Shown here: piece by piece, positions 1,295-17,745 of the stretch
Layout: every line of letters starts with the position of its first letter
Numbering within the stretch: the stretch's first letter is position 1
NCBI GenBank assembly: GCA_964435375.1
Contig: CAYSYK010000004.1
Span: forward strand, 3,954 to 67,953
Origin: an uncultured Oscillospiraceae bacterium
GTDB taxonomy: Bacteria; Bacillota; Clostridia; Oscillospirales; Oscillospiraceae
Direction: 5' to 3'
DNA length: 64,000 nt
Program-made: the position numbers and the translations under genes
The notes under the pieces: model-generated
What the model was told of the DNA's origin: nothing
The model's database searches: none
What the model saw: the letters and a program-made list of their open reading frames with translations, nothing else

Positions 1295-2248
1295 TCATTT
1301 CCGCACCCGATAATTCCGGGGCGAAACGCCATAGGTCCCTCGGAAAAGCCGATGGAAATAGCTGATGTTTTCATAGCCGACCGAGGCGGCAATGTCGTCA
1401 ATATTCCAGTTGGTCGTGCGCAGCAGAAACGCCGCCTGTGTCAATCGCTTTTCCTGCACCAGCTCCGTGTAGGTTTTCCCGGTCTGTCGATGTATCTCCC
1501 GGGAAAGGGTCGCGATGTCCAGATGGAGCATTTTCGCCACTTCCGTCAGGCTGCCGTCGGCATAGTGCGTTTCGATATAGCGCAAGACCGTCAAAATCAC
1601 GCTCTCGCGGGGCGGTTGCCACAGCTTGTCCGTGTAATTCATCAGTTCCAGAAGCAGCAGTGACATGGTCGTCTGGCTGATGTTGCGCCGATTGTGTTTC
1701 TTTTCCAGCAGAACAAGGATCAGATTTTCGATCAGGTTCTGGATGGAAATATCGTCCGCCGTCTGAAAATACAGGTAGCTGTTGCCTTGTTTCTGTCCCA
1801 GCAGGCAATCAAGAATGAATCGGCGCAGGGGAGAGGCATCCTCCTGAATGGCCGACAGCGGCTCGTTAAAAAATTCCGGCAAGACGATAAAATTTACCGT
1901 AATATCGGTCGCACCCGCTTTGCACACCTCGTGTCGGGCGGACTGCCCCAGAAACAGCAGTTCCCCCTCTTTGAGGCGGATGTGCCGCCCGTTGACAATG
2001 TGCGTCGTCTCGCCCATGCAGGAATAGATCACTTCCACATAGTCGTGCGTGTGCTCCGGGAAGTGGATAAAGCGGGTGTGCGGGCGCATCGTGATGAGTT
2101 TGCCGTCCGCCAGCAGCTTTTTGCTGTTGATGACGTTGGTGGTGCCGGTCATGTAAATATCTCTGTCGATGGAGGGACTTCCGTCGAGCAAAACCCGTTC
2201 CTCGGGTGTGATCGGCTGCAGGCGTGCGAGAATACCGGGATCAATCAT
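1295..2248 (-). CDS. AraC-family transcriptional regulator (cupin sensor plus HTH)
   Basis: N-terminal HTHDYVEVIY cupin motif; C-terminal IAASVGYENISYFHRLFRGTYGVSPRNYR AraC HTH. Confidence 0.92.
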   Translation of the reverse strand: MIDPGILARLQPITPEERVLLDGSPSIDRDIYMTGTTNVINSKKLLADGKLITMRPHTRFIHFPEHTHDYVEVIYSCMGETTHIVNGRHIRLKEGELLFLGQSARHEVCKAGATDITVNFIVLPEFFNEPLSAIQEDASPLRRFILDCLLGQKQGNSYLYFQTADDISIQNLIENLILVLLEKKHNRRNISQTTMSLLLLELMNYTDKLWQPPRESVILTVLRYIETHYADGSLTEVAKMLHLDIATLSREIHRQTGKTYTELVQEKRLTQAAFLLRTTNWNIDDIAASVGYENISYFHRLFRGTYGVSPRNYRVRK

Positions 2249-2649: not shown

Positions 2650-3738
2650 ATGAAAACGATGAAACGTATTGTGGCGGTAACAATGCTCTTGAGCATTTTG
2701 CTCGTCTGCGCGGCCGGTTGCACGCCCGAGGACGATACTACCACCACCGCCCCGAACGCCGACGGGAGTTCCGGCGTAGCCGATACGACCACAGGATCGG
2801 GTCAGCCCGCACACGTCCACACCTACAGTGCGCTGATCTATGAAGAGGATGCCACCTGCTCCGAAGCCGGTTGCAAATCCCATTACACCTGCTTTGGTTG
2901 TGACGCGGTCTTCGATGAAGAGAAGAAGGAAGTTTCTTCCGAAAGTCTGGTCATCTCCGCACTGGGGCACGATTTTGACGATGCCTACAAATGCACCCGC
3001 TGCAAGCTGAAGCTGGGCGAAGTCGTGGAAGCCATCGCCGCCCTGCCCGACGGCAACAACATCACGCTCTCCGCTCTGTCCGCCATCGGCGATGCCATCA
3101 GCAAATACAACAAGCTGGACGATGCCGCGAAAGACGCTCTGAACAATCTGACCGATAAGGTCGCGCATCTTCTGGCGTTGAGCGAACAAATCGAGGGCAT
3201 TGAGGTCGGCGTTATGGCAAAATACCTGTCCGATGCCGGCCAGAACCAGACTCTGACAGACGTGAAGTGGACCGACGGTGTCGACGAGATCTACGGCAAC
3301 TACAAGCAGATCGACTACAGTAGCTGGCAGTGGGTCAATCTCAAGTACAACAGCTCCACCCGTCCCGAGGGCAAAACGGTCGTCATGTTCGTCTACAACG
3401 CTGGCGATGCCGATGTCGAGCTGACTTGGGGCGCGGTCGATCCCGCCAAGACTGGTTGTATCTTCAACATCGGTGTCGGCTGGACAAGCGGCGACGGGGA
3501 AGACCCCGATGTCGGCCATCAGGTGCTGAAAGCAAACTCGTGGAACATGATTACGATCAAATGGGACGCCATCTACGGCTTTAATGCCAACGTCATGACC
3601 ACCGGCCATTATGCCGATGCCGAAAACAAAGCCGCCGTGAACGGCTGGAAATTCTCCGACGTATACATGATGGAAGCGGACAAACTCCCGCTGATGCAGC
3701 AAATCATCGACAACAGCGTCGGCACTTCCGCAGAATAA
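2650..3738 (+). CDS. Modular surface lipoprotein 1 (His/Cys module, helical spacer, putative beta-sandwich domain)
   Basis: Start moved to ATG 2650. Lipobox VCAAG-C, Thr-rich linker, HVH...ATC...HYTCFGC...GH...CTRC module. Paralogous to the next gene. Confidence 0.75.
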   Translation: MKTMKRIVAVTMLLSILLVCAAGCTPEDDTTTTAPNADGSSGVADTTTGSGQPAHVHTYSALIYEEDATCSEAGCKSHYTCFGCDAVFDEEKKEVSSESLVISALGHDFDDAYKCTRCKLKLGEVVEAIAALPDGNNITLSALSAIGDAISKYNKLDDAAKDALNNLTDKVAHLLALSEQIEGIEVGVMAKYLSDAGQNQTLTDVKWTDGVDEIYGNYKQIDYSSWQWVNLKYNSSTRPEGKTVVMFVYNAGDADVELTWGAVDPAKTGCIFNIGVGWTSGDGEDPDVGHQVLKANSWNMITIKWDAIYGFNANVMTTGHYADAENKAAVNGWKFSDVYMMEADKLPLMQQIIDNSVGTSAE

Positions 3739-3819
3739 GCACATCTATAAGTAAGCAACACTCCGAAAACCCGATTTCCATTCAAAAATTGATTCAGAAA
3801 ATCTTAGGAGGAAAAAATA

Positions 3820-6297
3820 ATGAAACGCAACACGAAAAACACGCCGGTAAAATTGCTGTGTCTGGCGATGGTGATCGCCGCCTGCGCACTGGCAATGGTT
3901 GCCTGCACTCCCGAAGGCGCAAGCACGAACGGAACGACGACCGGTGAACCCACCGGCACCCAGCAACAGCCGCACGAGCACGCATACGTCTGGCACGAAG
4001 AAGTCGCCGCCACCTGCACGGCCAACGGCACGAAGGGACATTTCACCTGTGAGTGCGGCAAGTATTTCGATGCAGACAAGAATGAAATCACGGCAGACGA
4101 TCTGGCCATCGTCGGCGGACACAATTTCGTAAACTATGTCTGCGCAGGTTGTAACACCGACCTGAGCGCACTGGCCGCAAAAATCGATGCTCTGCCCGAA
4201 AGTAACTATTCCTTGGCCGACATCCCCGTGATCAACGCCGTCAAGAAAGAATTTGACGCGCTGGACGATGCATTCAAAGCCGTGCTTACCAATTCCGCAC
4301 GCCTTGACAATGCCGTATCCGCCATTTCCGGCGTTTGGGTAGCGGCAGGTGCCGACACACTGGCCAGCGGTGGTCAGTGCGACCAGAGCCTTGTGGGATT
4401 TGCCGCAACCGCATCCGAAGACGAAGGTCTGGGCACCGTGGTGACCATCGGCTATGATGCATGGCAGTGGGCAAACTACCGCCACAACAGCACCGAAAAG
4501 ATTGCCGTCGGCACGAAGGTTGCCTTGGGCGTGTACAATGCCTCCGGCGAGGCAAAGGGCCTGCACTGGGGCGACGGCGCGACGGTTTACACCAACGCCG
4601 ATCAGGTCATTTTGCAGCCCGGCTGGAACCTGATCACCTTCACTTGGGAATGGGACGAGAACGCGATCGGCGAAAATTACGTGATCGCCACGCATATTTA
4701 TACGCTGTCCCCCGTCGGCAACGGCGAGAACATGAACGGCTGGAAATTCACCGCGCTGTTCGCTTACAGCGACGAAGCCGCCTTCAAGGCACTGGCAAGC
4801 AACTCCGTAGACGTTGAAATCCAGCCCGCGCACGTTCACGAGTACATCCACCACGACAAAGTCGATGAAACCTGCACCGTAGACGGTGTCGCAGAGCACT
4901 ACACCTGCGCGTGCGGCAAGTATTTCGATGTCAACAAGAATCCCACCACACAAGCCGCACTTGCGATCGCGCACGGACACAAGTTCGTCGATTCCGTCTG
5001 CTCCGGCTGCGGGCTGAATGTCGATGCCATCATCGAAAGCATTGAAAATCTGAGTCTGGCAAATCTGGCCGACGTGATCGCGCAGTACACCGCACTGCCC
5101 GAGGCGGACAAGGCGCTGGTCACAAACGGCTACAAGCTGGCCGCCCTCGAAAATCTGATCGTTGTCGGCGCGGACACGCTGGCTAACTGGGGCGACTGCG
5201 GCTCGGCCGTCACGTTCACCACCGCCTCCGATGACGTTTACGGCGCATACGGCGAGCTGAACCACACCGCAAGCTGGGCATCCGTGAAATACGCCTCGAA
5301 CCTCTTGCTGCAGGGACTGAACAAAGACCTCGTCGTCTACATCTACAACCCCACCGACGCCAACGTCGATATCGCATTCGGCTATCTCAACGACTCCCAC
5401 CCCGAGAGCATTTTCCAAGGCGCTTGCTACAAATATCAGACTTTGAACGCAAACTCTTGGACAAAGGTTGTCATCGAGTGGTCCGATGCTTATAATTACT
5501 ACATGGAACTCCAGCACATGCTGATGATCGCCTCCACCGGCAGCGCTTGCACCGCCGGTAACGGCATCAATCTGACCGGCTTCAAGATGTCCTCCATGTA
5601 CATCGTCGATGACGCCGCCGCGCTGGATGTTCTGACCGGCGACAGCGATGCCGTGCAGGCCGTGATCAGCGCGATCGACACACTGACGCTTGCAAACATC
5701 GAAGCGAATCTGCAGGGCGTGCTGGCGCAGTATAACGCGCTGTCCGATACGGACAAGGCTCTCGTCACCAACGCAGGCAAGCTGACCGCTCTGGCCAACA
5801 TTCAGGTCGTCGGCGCGGACACGCTGGCCAACTGGGGCGACTGCGGCTCGGCCGTCACGTTCACCACCGCCTCCGATGACGTTTACGGCGCATACGGCGA
5901 GCTGAACCACACCGCAAGCTGGGCATCCGTGAAATACGCCTCGAACCTCTTGCTGCAGGGACTGAACAAAGACCTCGTCGTCTACATCTACAACCCCACC
6001 GACGCCAACGTCGATATCGCATTCGGCTATCTCAACGACTCCCACCCCGAGAGCATTTTCCAAGGCGCTTGCTACAAATATCAGACTTTGAACGCAAACT
6101 CTTGGACAAAGGTTGTCATCGAGTGGTCCGATGCTTATAATTACTACATGGAACTCCAGCACATGCTGATGATCGCCTCCACCGGCAGCGCTTGCACCGC
6201 CGGTAACGGCATCAATCTGACCGGCTTCAAGATGTCCTCCATGTACATCGTCGACGACGCCGCCGCGCTGGACGCTCTGATTCCCGCCGCAGAATAA
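3820..6297 (+). CDS. Modular surface lipoprotein 2 (two His/Cys modules, three helical spacers, three beta-rich domains)
   Basis: AGGAGG RBS, lipobox AMVA-C, internally repeated modules, last two domains identical in protein sequence. Confidence 0.8.
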   Translation: MKRNTKNTPVKLLCLAMVIAACALAMVACTPEGASTNGTTTGEPTGTQQQPHEHAYVWHEEVAATCTANGTKGHFTCECGKYFDADKNEITADDLAIVGGHNFVNYVCAGCNTDLSALAAKIDALPESNYSLADIPVINAVKKEFDALDDAFKAVLTNSARLDNAVSAISGVWVAAGADTLASGGQCDQSLVGFAATASEDEGLGTVVTIGYDAWQWANYRHNSTEKIAVGTKVALGVYNASGEAKGLHWGDGATVYTNADQVILQPGWNLITFTWEWDENAIGENYVIATHIYTLSPVGNGENMNGWKFTALFAYSDEAAFKALASNSVDVEIQPAHVHEYIHHDKVDETCTVDGVAEHYTCACGKYFDVNKNPTTQAALAIAHGHKFVDSVCSGCGLNVDAIIESIENLSLANLADVIAQYTALPEADKALVTNGYKLAALENLIVVGADTLANWGDCGSAVTFTTASDDVYGAYGELNHTASWASVKYASNLLLQGLNKDLVVYIYNPTDANVDIAFGYLNDSHPESIFQGACYKYQTLNANSWTKVVIEWSDAYNYYMELQHMLMIASTGSACTAGNGINLTGFKMSSMYIVDDAAALDVLTGDSDAVQAVISAIDTLTLANIEANLQGVLAQYNALSDTDKALVTNAGKLTALANIQVVGADTLANWGDCGSAVTFTTASDDVYGAYGELNHTASWASVKYASNLLLQGLNKDLVVYIYNPTDANVDIAFGYLNDSHPESIFQGACYKYQTLNANSWTKVVIEWSDAYNYYMELQHMLMIASTGSACTAGNGINLTGFKMSSMYIVDDAAALDALIPAAE
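5164..6272 (+). repeat. Intragenic direct repeat, 464 bp x2 (5164-5627 and 5809-6272)
   Basis: By-eye comparison found only two synonymous differences (5184 T vs 5829 C; 5610 T vs 6255 C). Period 645 bp = 215 codons. Confidence 0.92.
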
Positions 6298-6342
6298 TCT
6301 ACCGTTTTCGGAACAGAGAAGTTTCCATTTGGGAGATTTTCC

Positions 6343-7575
6343 GTGAAAAAATTGAGATTTCTTTCCCTGTGCATAGCAGTTCTGCTGCTATGCACAGGAT
6401 GTTCCGTCAATTCCCAACAGACGGGATCCACCGCGGGATCTACCGTTTCGGAAGATCCCGTTTTGACGGAGCAATGCGTCGATTTTGTTGTCGAGGTCGA
6501 AGCGGGATCCGATCCCGTCATCCTGCATCTGACCGACCCGCAAATCATTGATGCCGCGCAAAAGCGAGCGCCCGACCGTCTCGGCGCAGCCGCCGACGAA
6601 TACTGGGCGACGGATAAAGCCGAGCAGCGTTGCTACGGCTATATTCGCGAAACGATCGAGCAAACAAACCCCGACCTGATTCTCCTGACGGGGGATCTCG
6701 TTTACGGCGAGTTTGACGACAGCGGAACGGCTTTGTGTTCTTTCATCGCATTTATGGACGGCTTTCGCATCCCGTGGGCGCCGGTTTTCGGCAATCACGA
6801 CAACGAAAGCAACATGGGCGCAGATTGGCAGTGCGCGCAGTTGGAAAAATCCGAGTACTGCCTGTTCAAGCAGCGGCAGTTGACGGGAAACGGCAACTAT
6901 ACCGTCGGCATTTCACAGGGCGGTGTCCTCACACGGGTATTTTTCATGCTGGACTCCAACGGCTGCTCCGCCGCCAGTGAAGCATCGCTGGCCAACCAAC
7001 ACACCAAAACAACCGTCGGTTTCGGAAACGATCAAATCGACTGGTACACGCAGACGGCTTTGCAAATTCGCGAAAATCATCCGCAGGCAAAGCTCTCCTT
7101 CGCCTTTCATATTCAGCCGGCAATTTTTCGAACCGCTTTCGAAAAGTACGGTTTTGTCAACGACGACGCGGAAATGCTCCTGAATCCGATCGACATTTCC
7201 GCGCACCCCGAGAAAACGGACGGAGATTTCGGATACTTGGGCAGATGCCTGAAAGACCCGTGGGATGCCAACAATCGAGTGTGGAAGAGCATGGTCGCTT
7301 TGGGTGTCGATTCCGTTTTTGTCGGCCATGAACACTGCAACAATGCGAGCGTGGTTTACAAAGGCGTGCGCTTGCAGTACGGCATGAAAAGCAGCACCTA
7401 TGACCGTGCAAATTTCCGAAACCGTGACGGCACGATCGTCGGCACATCGCTGGGCGATGCGGACGGCAGCCGTGAACCTTTGGTCGGCGGCACGGTGATC
7501 CCCCTGTCTTCATCGGACGGCAGCATTCTGCAGCCGTATATTTACATTTGTGCAAACGTCGACACCAAGCAATAA
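6343..7575 (+). CDS. Lipoprotein, calcineurin-like metallophosphoesterase
   Basis: GTG start, lipobox LCTG-C. Motifs HLTDPQ, LTGDL, FGNHD, FHI and GHEH. Confidence 0.85.
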   Translation: MKKLRFLSLCIAVLLLCTGCSVNSQQTGSTAGSTVSEDPVLTEQCVDFVVEVEAGSDPVILHLTDPQIIDAAQKRAPDRLGAAADEYWATDKAEQRCYGYIRETIEQTNPDLILLTGDLVYGEFDDSGTALCSFIAFMDGFRIPWAPVFGNHDNESNMGADWQCAQLEKSEYCLFKQRQLTGNGNYTVGISQGGVLTRVFFMLDSNGCSAASEASLANQHTKTTVGFGNDQIDWYTQTALQIRENHPQAKLSFAFHIQPAIFRTAFEKYGFVNDDAEMLLNPIDISAHPEKTDGDFGYLGRCLKDPWDANNRVWKSMVALGVDSVFVGHEHCNNASVVYKGVRLQYGMKSSTYDRANFRNRDGTIVGTSLGDADGSREPLVGGTVIPLSSSDGSILQPYIYICANVDTKQ

Positions 7576-7593
7576 CAGAAACGAGGTAACGCT

Positions 7594-9330
7594 ATGAAAA
7601 CAAGAAATTTGATCGCAGGTCTGCTGGCAGCCGTGATGCTGCTGTGCGTCGGCTGTTCCGGCAGCGGCACAACCACCGGCGGCAACGACATCCCCGGTAA
7701 CACCGGCGATAACGCAGGCAACGGCGAATACATCAGTGCCAAGCCCTTGGACATCAGCCGGCTTGGGGACGGATACAACCCCAACTATATGCCCGATGCC
7801 GCCTCCATCAAGCAGAGAAGCGGCACCATCCACGTCGTGCTTGACTTTGACGGCACGCAGGTCGGCTGGCAGAAAGTGGCCGAGGAATACGAGCGCCTGC
7901 ACAGCGGCAAGGTCGACGTCGTAATCAATACCGACTATTCCGGCACCATGTACGGCGAAAAAATCATCAGCGAGCTGCAAAACACCAAGACCGATTGGGA
8001 CATCGTTCAGGGCAACCTCGGCAGCTATCACACCAACGCCGCCTGTATGCACATCTCCTCCATTTCCGACCAAAACAACGAATACTGCGGTGCAAACGTA
8101 AAATGGAACGACGTTCTGGAAAACATTGCGTTCGAATCCATCGAAAACCACTCCACCGACACATATATCATCAACTCCGAAACCATGCAAACCTGCTGGT
8201 TCGTCAACAAAACCGCTCTGGACGAGGCCGCCGCGCTGGGCTATCGAAACTCCGACGGCGAGGCCGCCACGCCGAACACATGGGATGATCTTATGAGCCT
8301 GTGCGCCTATATGCAGCAGGCCGGCTACAATAACCCCCTCGGAATCACCCTGTCCGAAGGCTCCATCCGCACCGCGCAGTTCTCTTGGCTGACGCGTATC
8401 TACGGCGACTATTACTATCGCCAGTACTACCCCTACGTCATGAACTCCGAATATTGGGACGACTACGATCCCGAAGACACCGCGCCCGAGACCGTGGACG
8501 GCTACGGCGTGAAATTCTGCAAGATCGCGAACCTGATGCTGGACAAAAACTCCACTCTCACCGACGACGGTTTTGTCGGTGTCGGCAGCGACATTTACAA
8601 AGATTATCTGTCCAACTTCTATAAAATGCGTGACTATATCATCGCCGATGCGAGCGCGACCGAATTTGCCGCCCTGCGCGACCAGTTCCGTCTGCAATCC
8701 AAAGGCAAAAAGAGCGCGCAGATCATCCTCGATTACGTCGGCTACGGCTGCCTGTACAGCACCTCCGATGCCATCGAGCTGGATTATTTCGACTATCCCG
8801 TGATGGAAAGCGACTATGTTGACTCCGACACGCTTACCAGAGACATCGGCGGCAACGGCGGCTTCCTGTCCATCGTCAAGCACGTCGGCGACAAGGCACA
8901 GAACGAGCTGAACATCGACTTCATGAAATTCTTCATGTCCCCCTACGGTCAGACCATCTACTATCAAGGTCTGGCGGAAGGCAATGTCGCGCCCGCAGGT
9001 CAGACCACCGTCAAGCACGTGGTCATGCCCCAGCAGTGGAGCGCATTCTACAACAAAGTCGGCAAAAAGGTCGAATTTAACGGCAACGTCGACGGCAACA
9101 TCTTCATTTCTTGGGGCGTCCGCTTCTTCGGCGACTACGAGAACACCGACGATATGATCGGCGAAATCTGGAAAAAGCTGCTGCTTCGCGGCATCGGCGC
9201 GAAGGATGAGATCACGGTCGACGAGTTCTGCACAAGCTGGTACGATGCCTGCTTCAAAGACTACAAGCTCAAGTGCATCGACTGCCAGTGGCCCGAAAAT
9301 ATGTACCTGAATCCCGCACTTCCTTACTAA
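7594..9330 (+). CDS. Carbohydrate ABC transporter solute-binding lipoprotein
   Basis: Lipobox LCVG-C. WFVNKTALDEA...TPNTWDDLMSLC segment typical of family-1 SBPs. Precedes two permeases. Confidence 0.78.
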   Translation: MKTRNLIAGLLAAVMLLCVGCSGSGTTTGGNDIPGNTGDNAGNGEYISAKPLDISRLGDGYNPNYMPDAASIKQRSGTIHVVLDFDGTQVGWQKVAEEYERLHSGKVDVVINTDYSGTMYGEKIISELQNTKTDWDIVQGNLGSYHTNAACMHISSISDQNNEYCGANVKWNDVLENIAFESIENHSTDTYIINSETMQTCWFVNKTALDEAAALGYRNSDGEAATPNTWDDLMSLCAYMQQAGYNNPLGITLSEGSIRTAQFSWLTRIYGDYYYRQYYPYVMNSEYWDDYDPEDTAPETVDGYGVKFCKIANLMLDKNSTLTDDGFVGVGSDIYKDYLSNFYKMRDYIIADASATEFAALRDQFRLQSKGKKSAQIILDYVGYGCLYSTSDAIELDYFDYPVMESDYVDSDTLTRDIGGNGGFLSIVKHVGDKAQNELNIDFMKFFMSPYGQTIYYQGLAEGNVAPAGQTTVKHVVMPQQWSAFYNKVGKKVEFNGNVDGNIFISWGVRFFGDYENTDDMIGEIWKKLLLRGIGAKDEITVDEFCTSWYDACFKDYKLKCIDCQWPENMYLNPALPY

Positions 9331-9357
9331 GACCAACTTTCCGAAGGTATTGTGGCT

Positions 9358-11886
9358 ATGAGTAACGTAACGACAAATCCTGCCCCGATCCGGGGCAGGA
9401 AAAAAATAAAAAGTACCATCCTGATCGTAGGCGTACTGACGTTCATCTTTGCTCTGATGACGGCCGGCAGCGCATGGATGATGCCCCGCAAGACCGTTCA
9501 CACGGACGTTTCCGGCGAGGAAATCACCGCCTCCGCACTTTTTTACGGAAAACGCGGTGAGGACTATTTCATGGCGAGCGGCACCACCTTCGAGCGCCGC
9601 AGTCTGTCCGGCGACGAGCAGATTCAATCCGTAAATTTTCTTTCCGACATCAATCGCTATGTGCAGCAGGAAAACGTGCAATTGCTTGAGGGCAGTCTGC
9701 TCCAGTTTTACTTCGTGTACGCCAACAAAAATACCGGCGGAGATAATCTGGTCATCATTGACAATCTCGGAAACCTGTTTAAATACACGGAAGGGGAGAA
9801 CGGTCTGGAATTTTCCTCGGACTGCCTGATTCGAGATTCCGCGACGCAACTGGTCAAGATGATCTCCGACGGCGACGAGCTGTACGTTCTTTCCAACTAT
9901 AACAACCGACTTTTGCTGCAATGCTACGATCTTAACAATCTTTCCGCAGGCGTGCAAAACAGCCGCTATATCTGGTCGGTGGACAGTGTCGGTTCGCAGA
10001 CGAGCCGGATTTCCCCCTTGACCTACAAAATCAAGCTGTGGGAATTTGTCGCCGAGGGAGATTACCTGTATCTGGCAACCGATCTGGGACTTTACAAGCT
10101 GAACAAAAACTTTTACGACTATCAGGACGTGAAATTTCTGGACGCGGCAGACAATGCCTACGTCACCTATCTGCGCGAAACGCTGAAAAAAGCCGATGCC
10201 GCAGTCAAGGCTGAGAACGGCCTGACCGACGAAATCATCGACGGCATGACGCAGGCGCAGATGGCGAAAATTTTCAAAACCGTCACGGGCATCAAAACCT
10301 CCGAAGCAAAAGCGAATGCCGCGGAAGTGTTCGTGGAGGAGCACCCGTGGTGCGTGGATTACGATGCCTCTTCCGCAACCCTGACCGTGAAAAACGAGTG
10401 TCTTGACTCCGAGGCGATCTCCGTTGTAAAGGGCAGTATGTATGTCGTTTTGCGCGGCATGGCATATTCTCCCGTCAACAAAATGTTCTATATCGCCAAC
10501 AGCTACGACGATACGATCTGCTGTGCCTCTCTGGAGGATGTCAACCGCATCGGCCTGACGGACAGCAAAACCTTCGGCGATATCTGCAAAACACTCGACC
10601 TCTCGTTCGGCGGGAAGAAATTCCACGAATCCAAGAGCCTCGAGTGGAACGAAAACGCAAATACCCTGTACGTGGCATTTGCCAGCGACAACAAGCTCAG
10701 CATTCTCGATATTAACGGCGACAAAGCGAAGCTCGCCTATCATTTTGAAGCGGGTTTCGACATTCAGGAATATGTCGGCGACGAACACAACGACAAAATC
10801 TATTTCCTGAACGTCGAAAAATCCACCGATCTGGCAAACAACGTTACCTTGCGCAACACCGTTACCTGCCTCAATCCCCAACGCAGCGAAAATACCGGTA
10901 CAACACGCACCTTGCTGATCGTAAGTGCCGTCATGACGGCCGTGACCGCCATCATTCTGGTATTTGCATTCCGCCTGTACAAAAATCCCGTTGCCGCGCA
11001 GAAAGCAGTCGTGATCGGGAAAGATCTGCGCAAGCACAGAAGAACGTATTTCGCGCTGATTCCCTTTGTCGTGCTGCTGATCATGTTCTGCTATTACGAG
11101 GCGTTCGGCTCGATCGTGCTGTCGTTCTTCGATTACACGCGCGACAAGCCAACGATGAACTGGAACAGCTTCGCGAACTACATCAAAGTATTCAACGACG
11201 ATGATTTCCTGCTGGCCGTCGGCAACACCCTGTTTTTCTTGGTGTTCGACATCATCATCGCCATCGCACCGCCGTTCATTTTCGCATTTTTCCTGTCGGT
11301 CATGCGCAGCAAGAAATATTCCGGCTTCGTGCGCACCGCATTGCTGATTCCCGGTATCATTCCGGGTGTCGCCTCCATGCTGATCTGGCGAGTTGGTATC
11401 TTCGGCGAAACGGGTGTGCTGAACACGCTGCTGTCTTTCTTCGGAAAAGGCTCCGTCGCATGGCTGGAAAATACCTCCGTCTCCCGCTGGTCACTGCTGC
11501 TGATGAGTTTCCCGTTCATCGGGCAATACCTCGTGTTCTACGGTGCCATCATGAATATCCCCAAAGATTATTATGAAGCCGCGGAACTGGACGGCATTTC
11601 GGTTTTCCGCCGTTTCATCTCCATCGACCTGCCGCTGTGCGTGCCGCAGATCGTATACGTTCTGATCACGACCATGATCAATTCCGCGCAGAACTATGCA
11701 AGAACTTATATGCTCCGCAGCTCGGGTACCGTCACCCTCTCGGAGAAAATGTATAAGGCCATGACCTCCAATGGCGCAAACTACGGCCTGTCGTCAGCAT
11801 ACGCCATGGTGATCTTTGCACTTCTGCTCGTAGCGCTGATCATCAATTTCAGAATGCAGAAAAAAAGCTATATGGGAGAGTCCTGA
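9358..11886 (+). CDS. CUT1 ABC permease (MalF/UgpA-like) with a large N-terminal extracellular domain
   Basis: C-terminal ~290 aa with six hydrophobic segments and EAA loop IPKDYYEAAELDG, preceded by TM, ~475 aa hydrophilic domain, TM. Confidence 0.85.
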   Translation: MSNVTTNPAPIRGRKKIKSTILIVGVLTFIFALMTAGSAWMMPRKTVHTDVSGEEITASALFYGKRGEDYFMASGTTFERRSLSGDEQIQSVNFLSDINRYVQQENVQLLEGSLLQFYFVYANKNTGGDNLVIIDNLGNLFKYTEGENGLEFSSDCLIRDSATQLVKMISDGDELYVLSNYNNRLLLQCYDLNNLSAGVQNSRYIWSVDSVGSQTSRISPLTYKIKLWEFVAEGDYLYLATDLGLYKLNKNFYDYQDVKFLDAADNAYVTYLRETLKKADAAVKAENGLTDEIIDGMTQAQMAKIFKTVTGIKTSEAKANAAEVFVEEHPWCVDYDASSATLTVKNECLDSEAISVVKGSMYVVLRGMAYSPVNKMFYIANSYDDTICCASLEDVNRIGLTDSKTFGDICKTLDLSFGGKKFHESKSLEWNENANTLYVAFASDNKLSILDINGDKAKLAYHFEAGFDIQEYVGDEHNDKIYFLNVEKSTDLANNVTLRNTVTCLNPQRSENTGTTRTLLIVSAVMTAVTAIILVFAFRLYKNPVAAQKAVVIGKDLRKHRRTYFALIPFVVLLIMFCYYEAFGSIVLSFFDYTRDKPTMNWNSFANYIKVFNDDDFLLAVGNTLFFLVFDIIIAIAPPFIFAFFLSVMRSKKYSGFVRTALLIPGIIPGVASMLIWRVGIFGETGVLNTLLSFFGKGSVAWLENTSVSRWSLLLMSFPFIGQYLVFYGAIMNIPKDYYEAAELDGISVFRRFISIDLPLCVPQIVYVLITTMINSAQNYARTYMLRSSGTVTLSEKMYKAMTSNGANYGLSSAYAMVIFALLLVALIINFRMQKKSYMGES

Positions 11887-12758
11887 TGATGAAAAATAAA
11901 ATTAAACGGGGAAAGCTGCGTTATTCGCACGAGAAACGGCCGTTTCAGGCGTTTATCACCGTCGTGATCACGCTGTGTATGCTCTTTTCCTTCCTTGCAC
12001 TGTTTATTACGGTCGTCAACTCCATGAAAACCGATAATGAAGTTGCATTTAACATCTTTGCTCTTCCGTCATGGGAAAATCTGTTCGACGCCATTGCGCA
12101 TAACTTCTCAAGTGCATGGGCGGAAATCGGCCCGTATTTCTTCCGTTCCGTCATTACGTCGCTCATCGGCTCCATCGGCGCGGCGATCATCGGTGCGATC
12201 TTGGCGTACATCCTTGTTTTCAAGGATTTCTATTTCAAAAATGTCGTTTTCATGCTGTTCATCGCCGTCATGCTGATTCCCTCGATCATCGGCTATCCGG
12301 TGCTGCTGCCGCTGATGCGCGACACATTCAATCTCGGCGATTCACTGGCCGGTTATGTCATCCCCACCATCGGCGGCTGCCAGGTAGGTGCGATGTTCCT
12401 GTTCCGTACGTTCTTCAGCCAGCAACCCCGTGCGATGTACGAAAGTGCTAAAATGGACGGTGCAAACGACGTGTATCTGTTCTGCTATTTCACCGTGCCG
12501 CTGTCCTTGCCCATCATTCTCTATTTCGCCGTGGGCATTTTCACGAATATGTACAATGATTATCTGTGGTCAAGCCTGATCCTCGATTCGAATCTGACGC
12601 TGATGCCGAAGATGCTGTCCTTGGTCGACTCCAATACGCTTCAGTACGGCTCCATGTATGCCATGTACTGCATCTCGTCCGTGCCGATGATCGTCATTGC
12701 CATCATTTCCGCGAAGTATTTCCGCAGCGGCGAGTTTGCCTCCGGTATGAAACTGTGA
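11886..12758 (+). CDS. CUT1 ABC permease (MalG-like)
   Basis: Hydrophobic segments, EAA loop QPRAMYESAKMDGAND; start overlaps the upstream stop. Confidence 0.9.
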   Translation: MMKNKIKRGKLRYSHEKRPFQAFITVVITLCMLFSFLALFITVVNSMKTDNEVAFNIFALPSWENLFDAIAHNFSSAWAEIGPYFFRSVITSLIGSIGAAIIGAILAYILVFKDFYFKNVVFMLFIAVMLIPSIIGYPVLLPLMRDTFNLGDSLAGYVIPTIGGCQVGAMFLFRTFFSQQPRAMYESAKMDGANDVYLFCYFTVPLSLPIILYFAVGIFTNMYNDYLWSSLILDSNLTLMPKMLSLVDSNTLQYGSMYAMYCISSVPMIVIAIISAKYFRSGEFASGMKL

Positions 12759-12779
12759 GCTGCGACAAGTGAGGTTCGT

Positions 12780-14387
12780 ATGAAAAACATCAGCAAAAAA
12801 CTGTTTTCTCTGGCCATCGCCTGCACACTGTGCCTATCCGCCGTCCCGGGATGCACCCCCGGGCAAGAATCCACCCCCGACGGCGGCACGACATCCGGCG
12901 CGGATGCCACCGAGCCGATCGTGTTTGAAACCGTCTACACGGACGGCAGTGCAAAATCTCTTCTGCGCTACAACGCAGCCGTACCCGAAGAAAACGGCGT
13001 TGTCAGCTACGAGATCAAGCGCGACGTCGGAAATAAAAATTATATGCGCATCGCGCTCGAAACCGACGTAAACCTCGTCGGCTATATCTACTACACGAAT
13101 GCGCAGGATGCCACGCAAAGCCACAAAGAAAAATTCTTCATTGAGGCAGGTTCCACGGAATTTACAACCTTCCTTGACGCATTCCGCCACGGCGCATTTG
13201 CGCCTTATGAAAAAACGATCGGAAAAATCACGCTGCAAAACGTGGACGACACGAAATCCGGAACCGTCACGCTCAAAAGCGTCGATTTCTCCGATCGGAC
13301 TTACGACCCCGACGTTACCATGTACATTGACGACGGCGTTCTGCGCGTGGGTACATCGCTCGGCTTCGGCGGTGCCATCACCTATGTGGCGCGCATTAAT
13401 GCCAATATCAAAGAGTACATTGACGTCAACGGTAACACCTGCATTGGTCCGCTGGAGGATAGCTCCGATGTCGACCTGATCTCCGAAGAGGCGAATCTTG
13501 TCAACATTTACGACTTGGGGCGGGAAATTCAGCAGTCGTTCTACTGGCCGGTAAAGCCACAGCACGGCTATGTGCCCACCAGTGACCAGAAATACCCGGG
13601 CGATCTGAACTACAATCCCATTCAGTGCGGAAGTGCCGGCAGCGTCGGCCCGCAGATTGTCGATTATCGCTGTTCCGAGGATGAAATTTACGTCAAATCC
13701 TACGGCGCGGACTGGTATCTAGTCAATCAGGTGGACGCGACCTACTATGAAACATGGCTCCGTTTCGGCATTGACGGTACGTTGGTGGTGAAAAACAGAG
13801 TCACAAACTTCGGCCAGTTCATCGACACCGATCGTCTGGAATTTGTCAATCAGGAATCTCCCGCGTTTTATTCGGTATACCCGCTGGACTATTTCTACGC
13901 GGAAACCACCGACGGCACGATTTTTGACAACGAGCTCACCGCCGTCGGCAACGGAAGCGTCAAATCCTCCGCCACCGATACGGCAAGCAGCGGATACTGG
14001 TACAGCCTGAGCGCCGAAAAAATCAAAAACAACTGGATCGCCTTCGTGACGGAAAACAAATTCGGACTGGGCATCTACAATCCGTCCGCCGACTGCTTTG
14101 TCGCATCCAGCGGCACCCCCACAACCAAGTACATGAGCAACCAGATAACGCACCCGGATTTTTATGTCGATGACTATTCCGGCTACATTCCGAGCTGCTA
14201 CACAAACAACTACGGGTATCTGAACACGTCGATTCGCTGCAAAATGACGGATTTTGTCCCGATGGAATTTTCCTACGCGCTGTACGCAGGTACGGTGCAG
14301 GAGATAAAGTCGGCATTCCGTCAGCTCGAAGTCGGCAACGTGATGGAGCCCGCCAAAATCACGTGGCCGCACGAAAACGTGCAGTGA
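12780..14387 (+). CDS. Uncharacterised lipoprotein 3
   Basis: Lipobox AVPG-C; aromatic and beta-strand-rich sequence; no family confidently recognised. Confidence 0.7.
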   Translation: MKNISKKLFSLAIACTLCLSAVPGCTPGQESTPDGGTTSGADATEPIVFETVYTDGSAKSLLRYNAAVPEENGVVSYEIKRDVGNKNYMRIALETDVNLVGYIYYTNAQDATQSHKEKFFIEAGSTEFTTFLDAFRHGAFAPYEKTIGKITLQNVDDTKSGTVTLKSVDFSDRTYDPDVTMYIDDGVLRVGTSLGFGGAITYVARINANIKEYIDVNGNTCIGPLEDSSDVDLISEEANLVNIYDLGREIQQSFYWPVKPQHGYVPTSDQKYPGDLNYNPIQCGSAGSVGPQIVDYRCSEDEIYVKSYGADWYLVNQVDATYYETWLRFGIDGTLVVKNRVTNFGQFIDTDRLEFVNQESPAFYSVYPLDYFYAETTDGTIFDNELTAVGNGSVKSSATDTASSGYWYSLSAEKIKNNWIAFVTENKFGLGIYNPSADCFVASSGTPTTKYMSNQITHPDFYVDDYSGYIPSCYTNNYGYLNTSIRCKMTDFVPMEFSYALYAGTVQEIKSAFRQLEVGNVMEPAKITWPHENVQ

Positions 14388-14421
14388 ACGTTGCGGATTT
14401 CAAACTAAGAATGGTGTCATT

Positions 14422-15681
14422 ATGAAAAAAATAACTGCTGTGATTGTCGGCTACGGAAACCGAGGCTCCGTGTATGCGGATTATTCCTTTGAAGATCCCA
14501 ATTTTCAGGTCGTCGGTGTTGTCGACATCAATCCGTTCAAGCTGAGCACCGCAAAGCAGCGTTATGCGCTTTCCGACGATCAGCTTTACGAAAGCCTCGC
14601 GACTTTCTTGGAAAAGAAGCCCGCGGCGGATATCGTCATCAACACGACCATGGATCAGGACCATTACCATACATCCATGGCAATTCTGGGCGCGGGCTAC
14701 CATATGCTCGTGGAAAAGCCCGTCGTGAACAACAAAAAGGAACTTCTGGACATTGCAGCGCTGGCGAAAAAGAACGGCTGCAAAGTGTTCGTGTGCCATG
14801 TTCTGCGCTATACACCGTTTTATCGCACCGTCAAGCAACTTCTGCTTGACGGCGTGATCGGTGATATCATCTCCATAGAAATGCACGAGCACGTTGCCAT
14901 TTCTCACTTCCTGACCAGCTATTGCCGCGGAAAATGGAACGACGAAGATACCTGCGGCAGTCCGTTCCTGCTGGCGAAATGCTGTCACGACATGGATTTG
15001 ATTGCATGGCTGAACAACGCCTCCGTTCCGACTCGAATTTCGTCGTTCGGCTCGCGTTCGCTGTTCGTAAAGGAAAAAATGCCCGCCGATGCGACCGAAT
15101 ATTGCTACCAATGCCCCCACTATGAAACCTGCATCTACAGCGCAAAGCTGCAATATTTACAGCGCGACGATATGCCGTTCCTGACGTGGGCAGACCTGAA
15201 CAAGCCGCTTGAAGAAATCACCATGGCAGAAAAAGAAGAATTTCTCAAGCACAGCAATTTCGGCCGCTGTGCCTATATCGCAGGCGGCAATCTGGTGGAT
15301 CGGCAGAACCTGATCATCGAATTCAAGGACGGCTCGTGCGCCTCGTTCACTTTGGCGGCCAATGCCACCAAGCCACAGCGCCATCTGCACATCGTCGGCA
15401 CCAAAGGCGAGCTGGAGGGCATTCTTGAGAACAATCAACTCACCGTCCGAAAAGCCTACTGTCCCGACGAAACCATCGACCTGTCCGAACGCATCATCAA
15501 CAAGGTGCTTTTCGGCGGGCACAGCGGCGGCGACCACGCCATCATGGCCGACATCGTTGCCTATTTCAACGGCGACACCACGAGCATTTCCATGACCCAC
15601 ATTGACGATTCCGTCAACGGACACCTGCTTGTATACGCCGCAGAGGAAAGCCGCAAGCGCGGAAAAACCGTCGAATTGTAA
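14422..15681 (+). CDS. Gfo/Idh/MocA family NAD(P)-dependent oxidoreductase
   Basis: Rossmann VIVGYGNRG, LVEKP, LRY and LLAKCCHDMD motifs. Confidence 0.9.
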   Translation: MKKITAVIVGYGNRGSVYADYSFEDPNFQVVGVVDINPFKLSTAKQRYALSDDQLYESLATFLEKKPAADIVINTTMDQDHYHTSMAILGAGYHMLVEKPVVNNKKELLDIAALAKKNGCKVFVCHVLRYTPFYRTVKQLLLDGVIGDIISIEMHEHVAISHFLTSYCRGKWNDEDTCGSPFLLAKCCHDMDLIAWLNNASVPTRISSFGSRSLFVKEKMPADATEYCYQCPHYETCIYSAKLQYLQRDDMPFLTWADLNKPLEEITMAEKEEFLKHSNFGRCAYIAGGNLVDRQNLIIEFKDGSCASFTLAANATKPQRHLHIVGTKGELEGILENNQLTVRKAYCPDETIDLSERIINKVLFGGHSGGDHAIMADIVAYFNGDTTSISMTHIDDSVNGHLLVYAAEESRKRGKTVEL

Positions 15682-15708: not shown

Positions 15709-17745
15709 ATGCAAGCATATTGGATCGACAATATTGACCGAAAGAATTACGAAATATGCCTTACCACGCGCGTAGGGCAGGCAAAAGAAGCAAGCATCGC
15801 CGTCATTGCGAAATATACCTATAATCTGTTTATCAACGGCGCGTTTGTTTGCTACGGCCCTGCGCGCACAGCCGACGGTTATGCCCGCATCGATCGCATC
15901 GACATCAGCCGCTTTTTGACGCAGGCGGAAAATGTGATCTCCCTTTACTGCCTTAGCGTCGAAACAAAGACGCTTTGTTTCGCGGCGGGTGCCTCGTTTT
16001 TGGGTTGTGAACTGACGCTCGACGGCCGCACCGTCGATGCGCGCGCATTTTCCTGCTATCTGATGAACGACCGCGTCGACAGGGTGGAGCGAATGTCCGC
16101 CCAGCGGGGCTATGTCGAGGTGTACGAACAATCCGCCGACCGCACCGCTTTCGCCGACTGTAAATCGGTTCGCCTTTCGCCGCGCAAGACGCCGCAGCTT
16201 TTGGAGCGGCGCGTGCCGTTTTCGCGAAACGAACGCGTTTCGGGCACCGAATTTGCGCGCGGCTGCGTCACATTCGACAATCCGCATCCGTGGGGCGCGT
16301 GCTTGGTCAATTTCCTCTCCGACTGCACGGATGGAGATTTTTACCCGCTGAAAGATTGCCGCACGGTGCTCTATCGCGAATTGGAGCAAATGCGTTTTCA
16401 TCCGAACGCGGCAGGGAAGTGCCGCTATATTTCCTACGATTTGGGGCAGACATACAGCGGAAAAATCGAAATTCGGCTCAATGTCGCGCAAGATACGAAC
16501 CTCTGGGTCACCTATGACGATCTGCTGACGGACGGATGTGTCTTTTTCGGCAGGGAACAGATCATCCACGGCCTGAAATGGACGCTGAAAAAGGGAAATT
16601 ACACCCTGCATTCGGCGGAAGTGTATGCCATGCGCTACCTGTCGCTGATTTTCGACGGCAATGCGGCCGCAATTCGCGTGTCGGTAATTACGGTCGAAAA
16701 CCCCGCGTGGAAAGAGGTCTCCTTTGCCGATGCGAAGCTCGCGCAGATTTACCGTGCGGCACAGCGCACGTTCCGCCAAAACGCCTACGACCTCTATACG
16801 GATTGCCCGTCGCGCGAACGCGCCGGCTGGCTGTGCGACAGTTATTTCACGGCCAAAGCAGAGCGATTCTTCACCGGCGACAATTCGGTCGAACGAAATT
16901 TCCTCGAAAACTATCTGCTCTATGACGGGGCGGCTTTTCCCCACAAGGGAATTTTGCCCTCGTGTTTTCCCTCCGTGCCGAAGCATCCCAACGACTTCAT
17001 TCCAAACTGGATTCTGTGGTTCTTGGTGGAACTGGGCGATTTTGTCGCGCGTACCGGCGATTTGGCGTTTGCCCTGCGCTTTCGGGACAAAATCACGGAC
17101 ATTCTTGCCTATTTCCGCGCGTTTGAAAACGAGTACGGTTTCTTGGAAAATCTGCAGGGCTGGGTGTTTTTGGAGTGGAGCAAGGCAAACGATTTCATGG
17201 ACGGCGTGAATTTCCCGTCCAATATGCTCTATTACGGCGCACTTAGAAGCGCGGGCACGCTTTTGGACGACCGACAGCTTTTGGAAAAAGCCTCGGCCTT
17301 GCGGGAAGCCATCCGCGCATTCTCCTTTGACGGAGACTATTTCTACGACAATGCCCTTCGCACGGGAACAACACTCACGCGCACCGAGCACATCAGCGAA
17401 ACCTGTCAGTATTTTGCGGCGTTTTTCGACATCGCGCCCGACCGGGATGCCTTTGTCGAAAAGCTGGCGGAAAAGTTTTCGCCCTTTGCCGCGCCGCAGG
17501 ATCCGTTCTGCCCGTCGCCGATGTTCATCGGCTATGTTCTGCGGCTGTCGCTCCTGTTTGACGCAGGGGCGTATCGGCAACTGCTGGCCGAATGCAGGGA
17601 GAAATTCCTGCCCATGGCAGAACGAACGGGAACAATTTGGGAATTTTTCGATGAGAGCGCAAGCTGTAACCACGGCTTTGGCTCCATCGTCGGATATTTT
17701 GTGGCGGAGGCCGAAGAAAAATGCAGGAATGCTACCAAAATCTGA
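15709..17745 (+). CDS. GH78-like alpha-L-rhamnosidase (cytoplasmic)
   Basis: DCPSRERAGWLCDS matches the GH78 DCPxRERxGW motif. C-terminal TIWEFFDESASCNHG. No signal peptide. Confidence 0.75.
   Translation: MQAYWIDNIDRKNYEICLTTRVGQAKEASIAVIAKYTYNLFINGAFVCYGPARTADGYARIDRIDISRFLTQAENVISLYCLSVETKTLCFAAGASFLGCELTLDGRTVDARAFSCYLMNDRVDRVERMSAQRGYVEVYEQSADRTAFADCKSVRLSPRKTPQLLERRVPFSRNERVSGTEFARGCVTFDNPHPWGACLVNFLSDCTDGDFYPLKDCRTVLYRELEQMRFHPNAAGKCRYISYDLGQTYSGKIEIRLNVAQDTNLWVTYDDLLTDGCVFFGREQIIHGLKWTLKKGNYTLHSAEVYAMRYLSLIFDGNAAAIRVSVITVENPAWKEVSFADAKLAQIYRAAQRTFRQNAYDLYTDCPSRERAGWLCDSYFTAKAERFFTGDNSVERNFLENYLLYDGAAFPHKGILPSCFPSVPKHPNDFIPNWILWFLVELGDFVARTGDLAFALRFRDKITDILAYFRAFENEYGFLENLQGWVFLEWSKANDFMDGVNFPSNMLYYGALRSAGTLLDDRQLLEKASALREAIRAFSFDGDYFYDNALRTGTTLTRTEHISETCQYFAAFFDIAPDRDAFVEKLAEKFSPFAAPQDPFCPSPMFIGYVLRLSLLFDAGAYRQLLAECREKFLPMAERTGTIWEFFDESASCNHGFGSIVGYFVAEAEEKCRNATKI

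Follow-up and report, generated by a model that had tools for sequence, protein, structure and literature searches.

A conserved ABC importer cassette with a predicted propeller-bearing permease and unnamed surface lipoproteins in an uncultured Oscillospiraceae bacterium

The window analyzed here, a stretch of 64,000 nucleotides from an uncultured Oscillospiraceae bacterium (GenBank assembly GCA_964435375.1, contig CAYSYK010000004.1, positions 3,954 to 67,953), contains a run of eight genes, all on the plus strand (2650-15681), that encodes an unusual CUT1-type ABC importer together with a series of surface lipoproteins. In order, the run consists of lipoA (2650-3738, 362 aa, lipobox LVCAAGC), lipoB (3820-6297, 825 aa, lipobox AMVAC), a metallophosphoesterase lipoprotein (MPE; 6343-7575, 410 aa, lipobox LCTGC, Pfam Metallophos), a solute-binding lipoprotein (SBP; 7594-9330, 578 aa, lipobox LCVGC, a weak SBP_bac_8 match), a MalF-type permease with an ectodomain (permE; 9352-11886, 844 aa, BPD_transp_1), a MalG/UgpE-type permease (perm2; 11886-12758, 290 aa, BPD_transp_1), lipoC (12780-14387, 535 aa, lipobox AVPGC) and a cytoplasmic Gfo/Idh/MocA oxidoreductase (GFO; 14422-15681, 419 aa, Pfam GFO_IDH_MocA). 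Intergenic gaps range from -1 to 81 bp, no terminator-like site was seen between the genes on the plus strand, and the ATG of lipoA at 2650 is preceded by a Shine-Dalgarno-like AAAGGAAG. Five of the products combine a basic N-terminus and a hydrophobic stretch with a lipobox cysteine, bearing out the initial annotation, which had described five lipoproteins, two permeases and an oxidoreductase in one tight run; a genome-wide search with a lipobox regular expression was crude, shadow reading frames masking true genes, and gave only a rough background of 3.5%. Divergent to the run, and separated from lipoA by a 401-bp intergenic region, lies a gene for an AraC-family regulator (1295-2248, minus strand; Pfam HTH_18, HTH_AraC, AraC_binding and Cupin_2), and an AraC gene adjoins the cassette in related loci as well, in some of them as a fusion with the Gfo oxidoreductase.

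The stretch was recovered on single contigs in independent gut metagenome assemblies, and its synteny is conserved in other genomes, so the arrangement is not due to chance. Recent horizontal acquisition left no signal (GC content of 53.8% at the locus against 55.9% in the genome), though the distribution of the cassette is patchy. Pfam and NCBIfam put a name to only five of the eight products, namely MPE, SBP, the core of permE, perm2 and GFO. Neither database has a family that matches lipoA, lipoB, lipoC or the part of permE up to residue ~540, in agreement with the earlier impression that three of the lipoproteins and the permease ectodomain belong to no recognized family.

Both membrane subunits of the importer are recognizable by sequence and by fold as a MalF/MalG-type pair. 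The start of perm2 overlaps the stop of permE, and its product matches BPD_transp_1 (7.9e-12, 45.7 bits) as well as the NCBIfam models UgpE, GlcU and MalG. Against BPD_transp_1, permE scores 23.1 bits, below the Pfam cut-off of 26.4, and a search of PDB sequences aligned its residues 552-835 with the six-helix CUT1 permeases AlgM1 (6.7e-16), SugA and MalF, the same three proteins that Foldseek returned for the core of its structural model. The accompanying SBP is a lipobox-bearing lipoprotein of the SBP_bac_1/8 type that accompanies CUT1 importers: it passes the SBP_bac_8 threshold (1.5e-7, 31.9 bits, cut-off 27) over the N-lobe alone and matched no PDB sequence. In two of the nearest related loci (L003 and L006), the SBP is 62-78% and perm2 63-71% identical to the products in the window, and an SBP was present in the cassettes with enough flanking sequence, those from divergent loci giving phmmer E-values of 1e-114 to 1e-142.

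What sets permE apart lies ahead of this core. Hydropathy and an AlphaFold2 model built from a 25-sequence alignment (mean pLDDT 81.8, ectodomain ~90) agree on a transmembrane helix at ~14-43, an ectodomain, a second transmembrane helix at ~515-544 and then the six-helix CUT1 core. The ectodomain comprises ~470 hydrophilic residues (~45-510; nucleotides ~9484-10881) with a helical insert of ~70 aa at 262-330, and in the model its four-stranded sheets sum to about seven blades. Its best Foldseek match is the seven-bladed YncE (3vgz, E 6.8e-9, TMt 0.65), followed by many WD40-type propellers, and no propeller repeat family was detected in it by sequence against Pfam. The model thus places outside the membrane a beta-propeller of roughly seven blades, with one of the two additional N-terminal helices on either side of it. 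Relatives of the ectodomain are scarce: 5.8 billion proteins yielded 10 clusters at 90% identity, and 1.84 billion yielded 22 at 50% identity. All full-length relatives are permeases of ~750-925 aa, and those of only 196-638 aa seem to be fragments.

No gene for a MalK/MsmX-type ATPase is present at the locus, and MsmX/MalK-like ATPase genes occur on two other contigs of the same genome (C12 and C9), so that the importer is probably energized by a shared MsmX-type protein encoded elsewhere. Most cassettes, that of the window included, are without an ATPase gene. One locus (L024) has such a gene within the cassette: directly after lipoC, at 11518-13365, it encodes a 615-aa MalK/MsmX-type ATPase with a ~200-residue insert between its ABC and OB_MalK domains.

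Scanning a genome collection with an alignment of lipoC yielded 42 loci in metagenome-assembled genomes (MAGs) of gut and rumen Clostridia, many of them labeled Candidatus Scatosoma, with the closest labeled Subdoligranulum sp. About 27 loci from other Clostridia MAGs of gut and rumen keep the large SBP, the propeller permease, the MalG-like permease and lipoC, and most also keep the oxidoreductase; lipoC follows the SBP and permease genes either directly or one lipoprotein gene later. The suggestion that the lipoproteins might never accompany such importers elsewhere is thereby contradicted, since in many genomes the unnamed lipoproteins and the long permease regularly come together with the ABC genes. 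The nearest relatives (L003-L006 and L009) share the gene order lipoA, lipoB, SBP, permE, perm2, lipoC, with MPE absent or located elsewhere; their permE is 49-66% identical over its full length, the ectodomain falling to 40%. Three further loci (L010-L012) carry a lipoB-like gene and a ~900-aa gene along with SBP, permE, perm2 and lipoC. More distantly, some 20 loci with enough flanking sequence present an AraC gene on the minus strand, an SBP of ~590 aa, permE of ~870 aa, perm2 of ~299 aa and a ~900-aa Flg_new lipoprotein, and then lipoC, a surface protein of 700-2000 aa and a Gfo oxidoreductase of ~425 aa.

Divergent propeller-permease loci, taken from the family of one such MAG, mostly keep the same set in a changed order, and in many of them AraC and Gfo form a single fusion protein; two of the six that were examined (L062 and L063) are without lipoC within the 20 kb read, and the latter also without SBP and Gfo. 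The contigs carrying the distant ectodomain relatives P0131 and P0138 are too short to reach the downstream genes. Overall, the distribution is patchy: 6 of 81 genomes from a single family encode the propeller, and 12 of 399 from the class at large encode a lipoC-family protein. Besides lipoC, which is kept in most cassettes, the importer is always accompanied by at least one large multi-domain surface lipoprotein. In the window these are the stalked lipoA and lipoB, which are confined to the nearest clade; in most relatives their place is taken by the unrelated ~900-aa Flg_new lipoprotein. The genome studied here has one copy of each part and no homologue of the ~900-aa protein, which implies that lipoA and lipoB occupy its role. 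Taken together, the constant parts (SBP, propeller permease, perm2, lipoC and Gfo) suggest a common chemistry. Other parts are interchangeable, namely lipoA/B or the ~900-aa lipoprotein in their stead, MPE, the glycosidases and the large surface proteins, and this turnover suggests that the cassettes have adapted to different polymers.

Of the conserved proteins outside the cell, only lipoC has an invariant polar site resembling that of an enzyme. More than 120 relatives came out of a word-based search, every one of them unnamed and without a Pfam domain; lipoC itself matched nothing in Pfam or NCBIfam, and neither its single sequence nor a 56-sequence profile matched any PDB chain up to an E-value of 10. 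Its AlphaFold2 model, built from an alignment of 56 relatives (pLDDT 90.8), shows an N-terminal beta-sandwich (~49-171) followed by a large beta-supersandwich (~180-505). Structure prediction with Foldseek, which had been proposed as a check on these proteins, was run for permE and lipoC, and as it returned the YncE-like propeller for the former, it returned a beta-supersandwich for the latter, weakly matched to GH174: the top hit was the endo-1,3-fucanase 8jd7 (E 6.6e-8, probability 1.0), joined by a second fucanase, 9k1g, and followed by beta-supersandwich domains that serve other roles (domain 5 of beta-galactosidase, YidC P1, PL26 and mutarotase). Twenty residues are invariant in an alignment of 72 members that takes in paralogues encoded on their own as well as secreted proteins from Cytophagales and Planctomycetota MAGs (G191, G197, G198, N242, D245, G247, R248, Q251, Y255, Y278, N279, P280, Q282, G284, E359, P361, W419, A421, G429 and Y480), and they form the motifs GG, N-x2-D-x-GR-x2-Q-x3-Y, YNP-x-Q-x-G, E-x-P and W-x-A. 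That invariant N, D, R, Q, Y and E residues are retained from Bacillota to Planctomycetota is what a catalytic or highly specific site would show, and we infer that lipoC is a candidate extracellular depolymerase of an unnamed family. As it looks like an enzyme, it would be an analogue of SusG and not the surface binder that it had been taken for.

The lipoC family also occurs apart from the importer. Stand-alone secreted proteins with a lipoC domain exist in genomes without the propeller permease, and a profile scan of 11 lipoC-positive genomes found no propeller permease (the window gene, as positive control, scored 5.5e-180). These occurrences weaken the idea that lipoC is an obligate transporter subunit and fit an autonomous enzyme or binder over a mere subunit. 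Outside any ABC context, the core domain is found with its motifs intact in secreted multi-domain proteins from Cytophagales and Planctomycetota MAGs (L048 4348-6828, L049 9671-12151 and L050 181-1248). No Bacteroidota polysaccharide-utilization-locus context was found around the Cytophagales relatives when it was looked for.

The first two lipoproteins of the run are paralogues built from one module, in which a motif of His and Cys residues is followed by a helical spacer of ~60 residues and a beta-rich domain of ~150 residues; the module of lipoA aligns with the repeats of lipoB. In lipoA, a single module follows the lipobox and a low-complexity linker, and lipoB has two full modules and a third spacer/beta-domain unit. 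Against the PDB, a profile of the module matched only the IgA protease structure 9qa6 (E 2e-5), where residues 851-907 line up with it at the Cys and His positions, and its beta-domain part had no profile match; lipoB matched no PDB sequence, and the beta domain matched no Pfam family at E-values up to 10. In the IgA protease of Thomasclavelia ramosa, the corresponding domains CTD2 and CTD4 are zinc-stabilized "periscope" spacers of a surface protein (PMC12415215). Like them, the lipoA/B motif sits in a spacer of a surface-anchored Bacillota protein and keeps its Cys and His residues, for which we predict a zinc site; the T. ramosa periscope spaces a protease from an LPXTG-type anchor, whereas that of lipoA/B carries an unnamed beta domain on a lipoprotein. 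To judge from the sequence, such a layout presents the beta domain at a distance from the membrane.

Orthologues of lipoA stand at the same position in three nearby loci (L003, L006 and L009), and its relatives amount to only 11 clusters in 5.8 billion proteins, so that, as far as sequence searches reach, lipoA and lipoB are restricted to the nearest clade. Profile-profile comparison (hhalign, probability ≤0.2%) rejected them as diverged versions of the ~900-aa lipoprotein or of the N-terminal domain of lipoC. The last two beta domains of lipoB are near-identical at the DNA level (5059-5358 and 5704-6003), and their spacers have diverged. We rejected an assembly artefact as the source of this repeat: independent assemblies break there, and the collapsed unit has about twofold depth in an independent metagenome, both of which support a true duplication, whose copies were probably homogenized by gene conversion.

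Two enzymes complete the run. MPE matches Pfam Metallophos (2.2e-10, 41.7 bits, cut-off 21.5), and its motifs DPQ65, GDLVY117, GNHD150, FHIQ255 and GHEH328 make up a purple-acid-phosphatase-like set, of which GDxxY, GNHD and GHxH place it among the calcineurin-like metallophosphoesterases. Its first motif reads DPQ where DxH would be expected. No counterpart exists in the cassettes of L003, L006 and the loci with the ~900-aa lipoprotein; one lies downstream in L009, and another near a stand-alone lipoC gene in L030. By this distribution MPE is an accessory and not part of the conserved core, and its sequence hints at phosphate substituents on the glycan. The unnamed proteins stay clear of characterized non-carbohydrate families, as the initial annotation required of its proposal, but MPE, which does fall in the known metallophosphoesterase superfamily, lies outside that core.

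GFO carries the Pfam GFO_IDH_MocA and C-terminal domains of the NAD(P)-dependent type, a Cys-rich insert and the motifs EKP98, CCHD187 and CYQCP228. Its relatives in the PDB are only distant, and its NCBIfam matches to glycoside and disaccharide 3-dehydrogenase models are weak. A counterpart is found in most cassettes, free-standing or fused to AraC, which makes it as constant as the lipoproteins. AraC-Gfo fusions of 608-716 aa are encoded at L006 2110-4215, L009 3-1829, L058 6000-8150, L059 6201-8312 and L060 5320-7461, and their Gfo domain and the free-standing oxidoreductase of the window are members of one family; in these fusions the domain may be an enzyme-derived ligand sensor.

Downstream of GFO, and on the same strand, follow four genes whose products have neither signal peptides nor transmembrane segments: a GH78-like six-hairpin protein (15709-17745; Pfam Bac_rhamnosid6H 2.7e-15), a GH95 protein (17721-20021; Pfam Glyco_hydro_95_cat 1e-49), an unnamed 665-aa protein (20018-22015) and a GH106-like protein (22070-24913; Pfam Glyco_hydro_106 4.1e-15). 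All four had been described as glycoside-hydrolase-like genes without signal peptides, which is accurate for the export signals and, as to family, for three of them, but the 665-aa protein matched nothing in Pfam, NCBIfam or the PDB. It is conserved in related loci (L045, and L059 at E 5.9e-144) and may represent an unnamed glycosidase family. Genes of the GH78-like type also lie beside lipoC-family genes in separate lineages (L009-L011, L045 and L056).

Pathways for two deoxyhexoses flank the locus. Beyond the GH106-like gene, and still on the plus strand, come L-rhamnose isomerase RhaA (24956-26206; Pfam RhaA 9.7e-169) and a RhaD-like class II aldolase (open reading frame 26119-27015; Pfam Aldolase_II 8.1e-29). 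The longest frame of the latter begins at a TTG and overlaps rhaA by 88 nt (26119-26206), with an ATG ~84 nt further on (MNDIL...), and its true start is probably near 26203. On the minus strand, ahead of the regulator, lie a class II aldolase of the fuculose-phosphate type (553-1401; Pfam Aldolase_II 2.8e-47) and the end of an L-fucose isomerase gene that continues past the window start (within 1-1401; Pfam Fucose_iso_N1/N2/C), and an FGGY sugar kinase (Pfam FGGY_N/C; minus strand) is encoded just upstream on the contig, outside the window. As predicted proteins, the GH78-like, GH95 and GH106-like enzymes and the two deoxyhexose pathways point to a glycan containing rhamnose and fucose, the same kind of substrate that had been proposed from the sequence at first.

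Placed together, these parts make it somewhat probable, in our judgment, that the locus is an AraC-controlled Gram-positive polysaccharide-utilization operon organized around an unusual conserved CUT1-type importer, with capture and cleavage at the surface ahead of import. In the sequence of events that anatomy and synteny would support, the terminal beta domains of lipoA and lipoB, held off the membrane by zinc-ribbon and helical stalks, would bind a rhamnose/fucose-containing polymer, which lipoC would cut to oligosaccharides; in this clade, the surface phosphoesterase would strip phosphate substituents. The SBP would hand the fragments to the permease pair, the propeller would give the SBP or the accessory lipoproteins a platform on which to dock or be guided, and import would be powered by the shared MsmX/MalK-type ATPase. 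Once in the cytoplasm, the oligosaccharide would be dismantled by the Gfo-type oxidoreductase together with the GH78-like, GH95, GH106-like and 665-aa proteins, and the L-rhamnose and L-fucose set free would enter the flanking RhaA/RhaD and FucI/kinase/aldolase pathways. We hold a bolder version of this scheme to be speculative, with the balance well against it: that the propeller, the stalked or multi-domain lipoproteins and lipoC form one surface machine, a monoderm "utilisome" and the first Gram-positive counterpart of SusCDEFG, in which lipoC would found a new beta-supersandwich family of glycan-cleaving enzymes (hydrolase or lyase, with an active site formed by D245, R248, Q251, Y255, N279, Q282 and E359).

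The locus is real, conserved and undescribed, and it is a variant among known types of systems. By the definition of Gram-positive polysaccharide-utilization loci (gpPULs; Sheridan et al., 2016) in the wording quoted in PMC13543919, it qualifies through its GH95, GH78-like and GH106-like genes, its SBP with two permeases and its AraC regulator. With gpPULs built on CUT1 importers (MalEFGK2, LpqY-SugABC and AlgQ-AlgM1M2SS) it shares the grouping of a regulator, an SBP-dependent ABC importer and hydrolases, and with many Bacillota CUT1 systems an ATPase encoded outside the operon. Unlike them, it has a ~470-aa propeller between two extra N-terminal helices of a permease, four lipoproteins beyond the SBP, and a cassette in which a beta-supersandwich lipoprotein and a Gfo/Idh/MocA partner are fixed. 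None of these traits comes up in a 2026 review of glycoside transporters, where the terms "propeller", "accessory" and "extracellular domain" do not occur, and neither a MalF-type permease with a propeller nor the accessory families turned up in the searchable literature. A parallel to the propeller is the P2 loop of E. coli MalF, likewise an extracytoplasmic domain on a MalF-type subunit and placed for possible contact with the binding protein. P2, however, has ~180 aa and is inserted between TM3 and TM4 inside the core, whereas the ~470-aa propeller lies ahead of the core, its helices preceding the region that aligns from residue 5 of AlgM1 and SugA onward; it is therefore not an ectodomain of the P2 type. 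E. coli YncE, for its part, is a soluble periplasmic protein, and the propeller of the window is fused to a permease, has a helical insert and shows no sequence similarity to it.

The initial annotation had called the locus a monoderm analogue of the Sus apparatus. This stands as far as the logic goes, in that surface lipoproteins are encoded beside transporter genes and final breakdown by cytoplasmic glycosidases follows uptake by an ABC importer, as it follows uptake in the SusCDEFG system of Bacteroides; by position and character, lipoC is comparable to SusG as a candidate surface enzyme, and lipoA/B or the ~900-aa lipoprotein to SusE/F as poorly conserved, interchangeable, multi-domain surface lipoproteins. 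It does not extend to descent. Neither a TonB-dependent receptor (SusC) nor SusD was present among the Pfam and NCBIfam matches of the genes in 1-27 kb, there is neither sequence nor fold homology to Sus proteins, and, unlike SusCDEFG, the system has no outer membrane to cross, the organism being a Clostridia-type monoderm to judge from its relatives, and its importer delivers straight to the cytoplasm. By this comparison, the locus is Sus-like in logic only.

Several observations weigh against the polysaccharide-utilization reading or against particular steps in it. Conservation of the propeller is poor (22 sequences share two invariant residues), and no ligand site is recognizable in it; such variability is more in keeping with a platform or a variable binder than with an enzyme. 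Because the beta domain of lipoA/B belongs to no family, the case for these proteins as glycan binders is made from architecture and context. Likewise, the resemblance of lipoC to GH174, described as an unusual, beta-sheet-dominated glycoside hydrolase fold in the passage of PMC12534559 that cites Chen et al. (2024), is weak (TM 0.37-0.40, rmsd 7-9 Å, 12% identity). Like the endo-1,3-fucanases 8jd7 and 9k1g, lipoC is extracellular and set in a deoxyhexose (fucose/rhamnose) context, but it shares no sequence or profile match with GH174, though both structures are in the PDB. The catalytic residues of Fun174A are given as D119, E120 and E218; lipoC has D245 and E359 among its invariant residues. 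The same fold is also non-catalytic in the YidC P1 domain and in domain 5 of beta-galactosidase. RNA runs holding the SBP gene, which would bear on a single transcript, were looked for and none was found. The analogy with Sus leaves a constant cytoplasmic Gfo partner unexplained. Finally, most distant cassettes have no glycoside hydrolase nearby but only the Gfo enzyme, so that the conserved SBP may carry a smaller, common ligand.

This last point leads to an alternative that we regard as unlikely but worth keeping in view, in which the imported substrate is a small rhamnosylated or fucosylated glycoside, such as a plant flavonoid or saponin glycoside, or a common small sugar derivative, and not fragments of a captured polymer. 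Gfo would then start a breakdown of the 3-keto-glycoside type or an NAD-dependent deglycosylation, and the surface lipoproteins would serve otherwise, for example in adhesion or envelope structure. Such a role agrees with a Gfo that is as constant as lipoC and sometimes fused to the regulator, with its weak matches to 3-dehydrogenase models, with an SBP strongly conserved across loci whose other genes vary, and with the scarcity of hydrolases near the distant cassettes. Yet five surface lipoproteins, among them stalked multi-domain proteins and an enzyme-like beta-supersandwich, would be hard to justify, no DgpBC-like or sugar-isomerase-fold lyase partner is among the Pfam and NCBIfam matches at the locus, and the three exo-glycosidase-like genes point to an oligosaccharide. 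If instead a polymer is the target, it might belong to a bacterial envelope or capsule, for example a rhamnose-rich wall polysaccharide or one with phosphodiester-linked repeats, scavenged from neighbors or recycled from the cell itself. Phosphodiester links are typical of bacterial wall polymers, and both the surface metallophosphoesterase lipoprotein of the operon, with another near lipoC-family genes, and the rhamnosidase-like genes would suit such a substrate. We nonetheless find it improbable: the phosphoesterase stands outside the conserved core, GH95 and the fucose pathway suit plant or host glycans equally well, and nothing at the locus is specific to wall polymers.

The surface proteins may also have been misread as acting on a substrate. 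Strict co-occurrence with the propeller permease in ~27 loci, a propeller fold that commonly serves as a protein-protein platform, and the non-catalytic relatives of the lipoC fold would all be compatible with lipoC and the big lipoproteins as structural subunits mounted on the propeller, where they would act as a cage or lid, position the SBP or shield the importer within the thick wall, and make no contact with the substrate themselves. We give this little credence, since members of the lipoC family are found on their own where the genome has no propeller permease and in secreted proteins of Cytophagales and Planctomycetota, since they keep 20 invariant residues, N, D, R, Q, Y and E among them, and since the exchange of lipoA/B for an unrelated ~900-aa lipoprotein is better matched by variable substrate capture than by a fixed scaffold. 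The polysaccharide-utilization operon, with capture and cleavage ahead of import, is accordingly the reading that we prefer.

Glycan capture by Gram-positive gut bacteria is far less understood than the Sus paradigm of Bacteroides. The cassette described here brings together four unnamed families (the propeller ectodomain, lipoC, the beta domain of lipoA/B and the ~900-aa lipoprotein of the relatives) that, in numerous uncultured Clostridia of gut and rumen, are genetically tied to an ABC importer. If these parts act together, they would offer a testable model of surface capture and hand-off in monoderms, in which lipoC, if the scheme is true, would be a candidate for a new family of carbohydrate-active enzymes for deoxyhexose-rich polymers. 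Even on a conservative reading, the cassette gives a recognizable and searchable transporter subtype for the annotation of MAGs.

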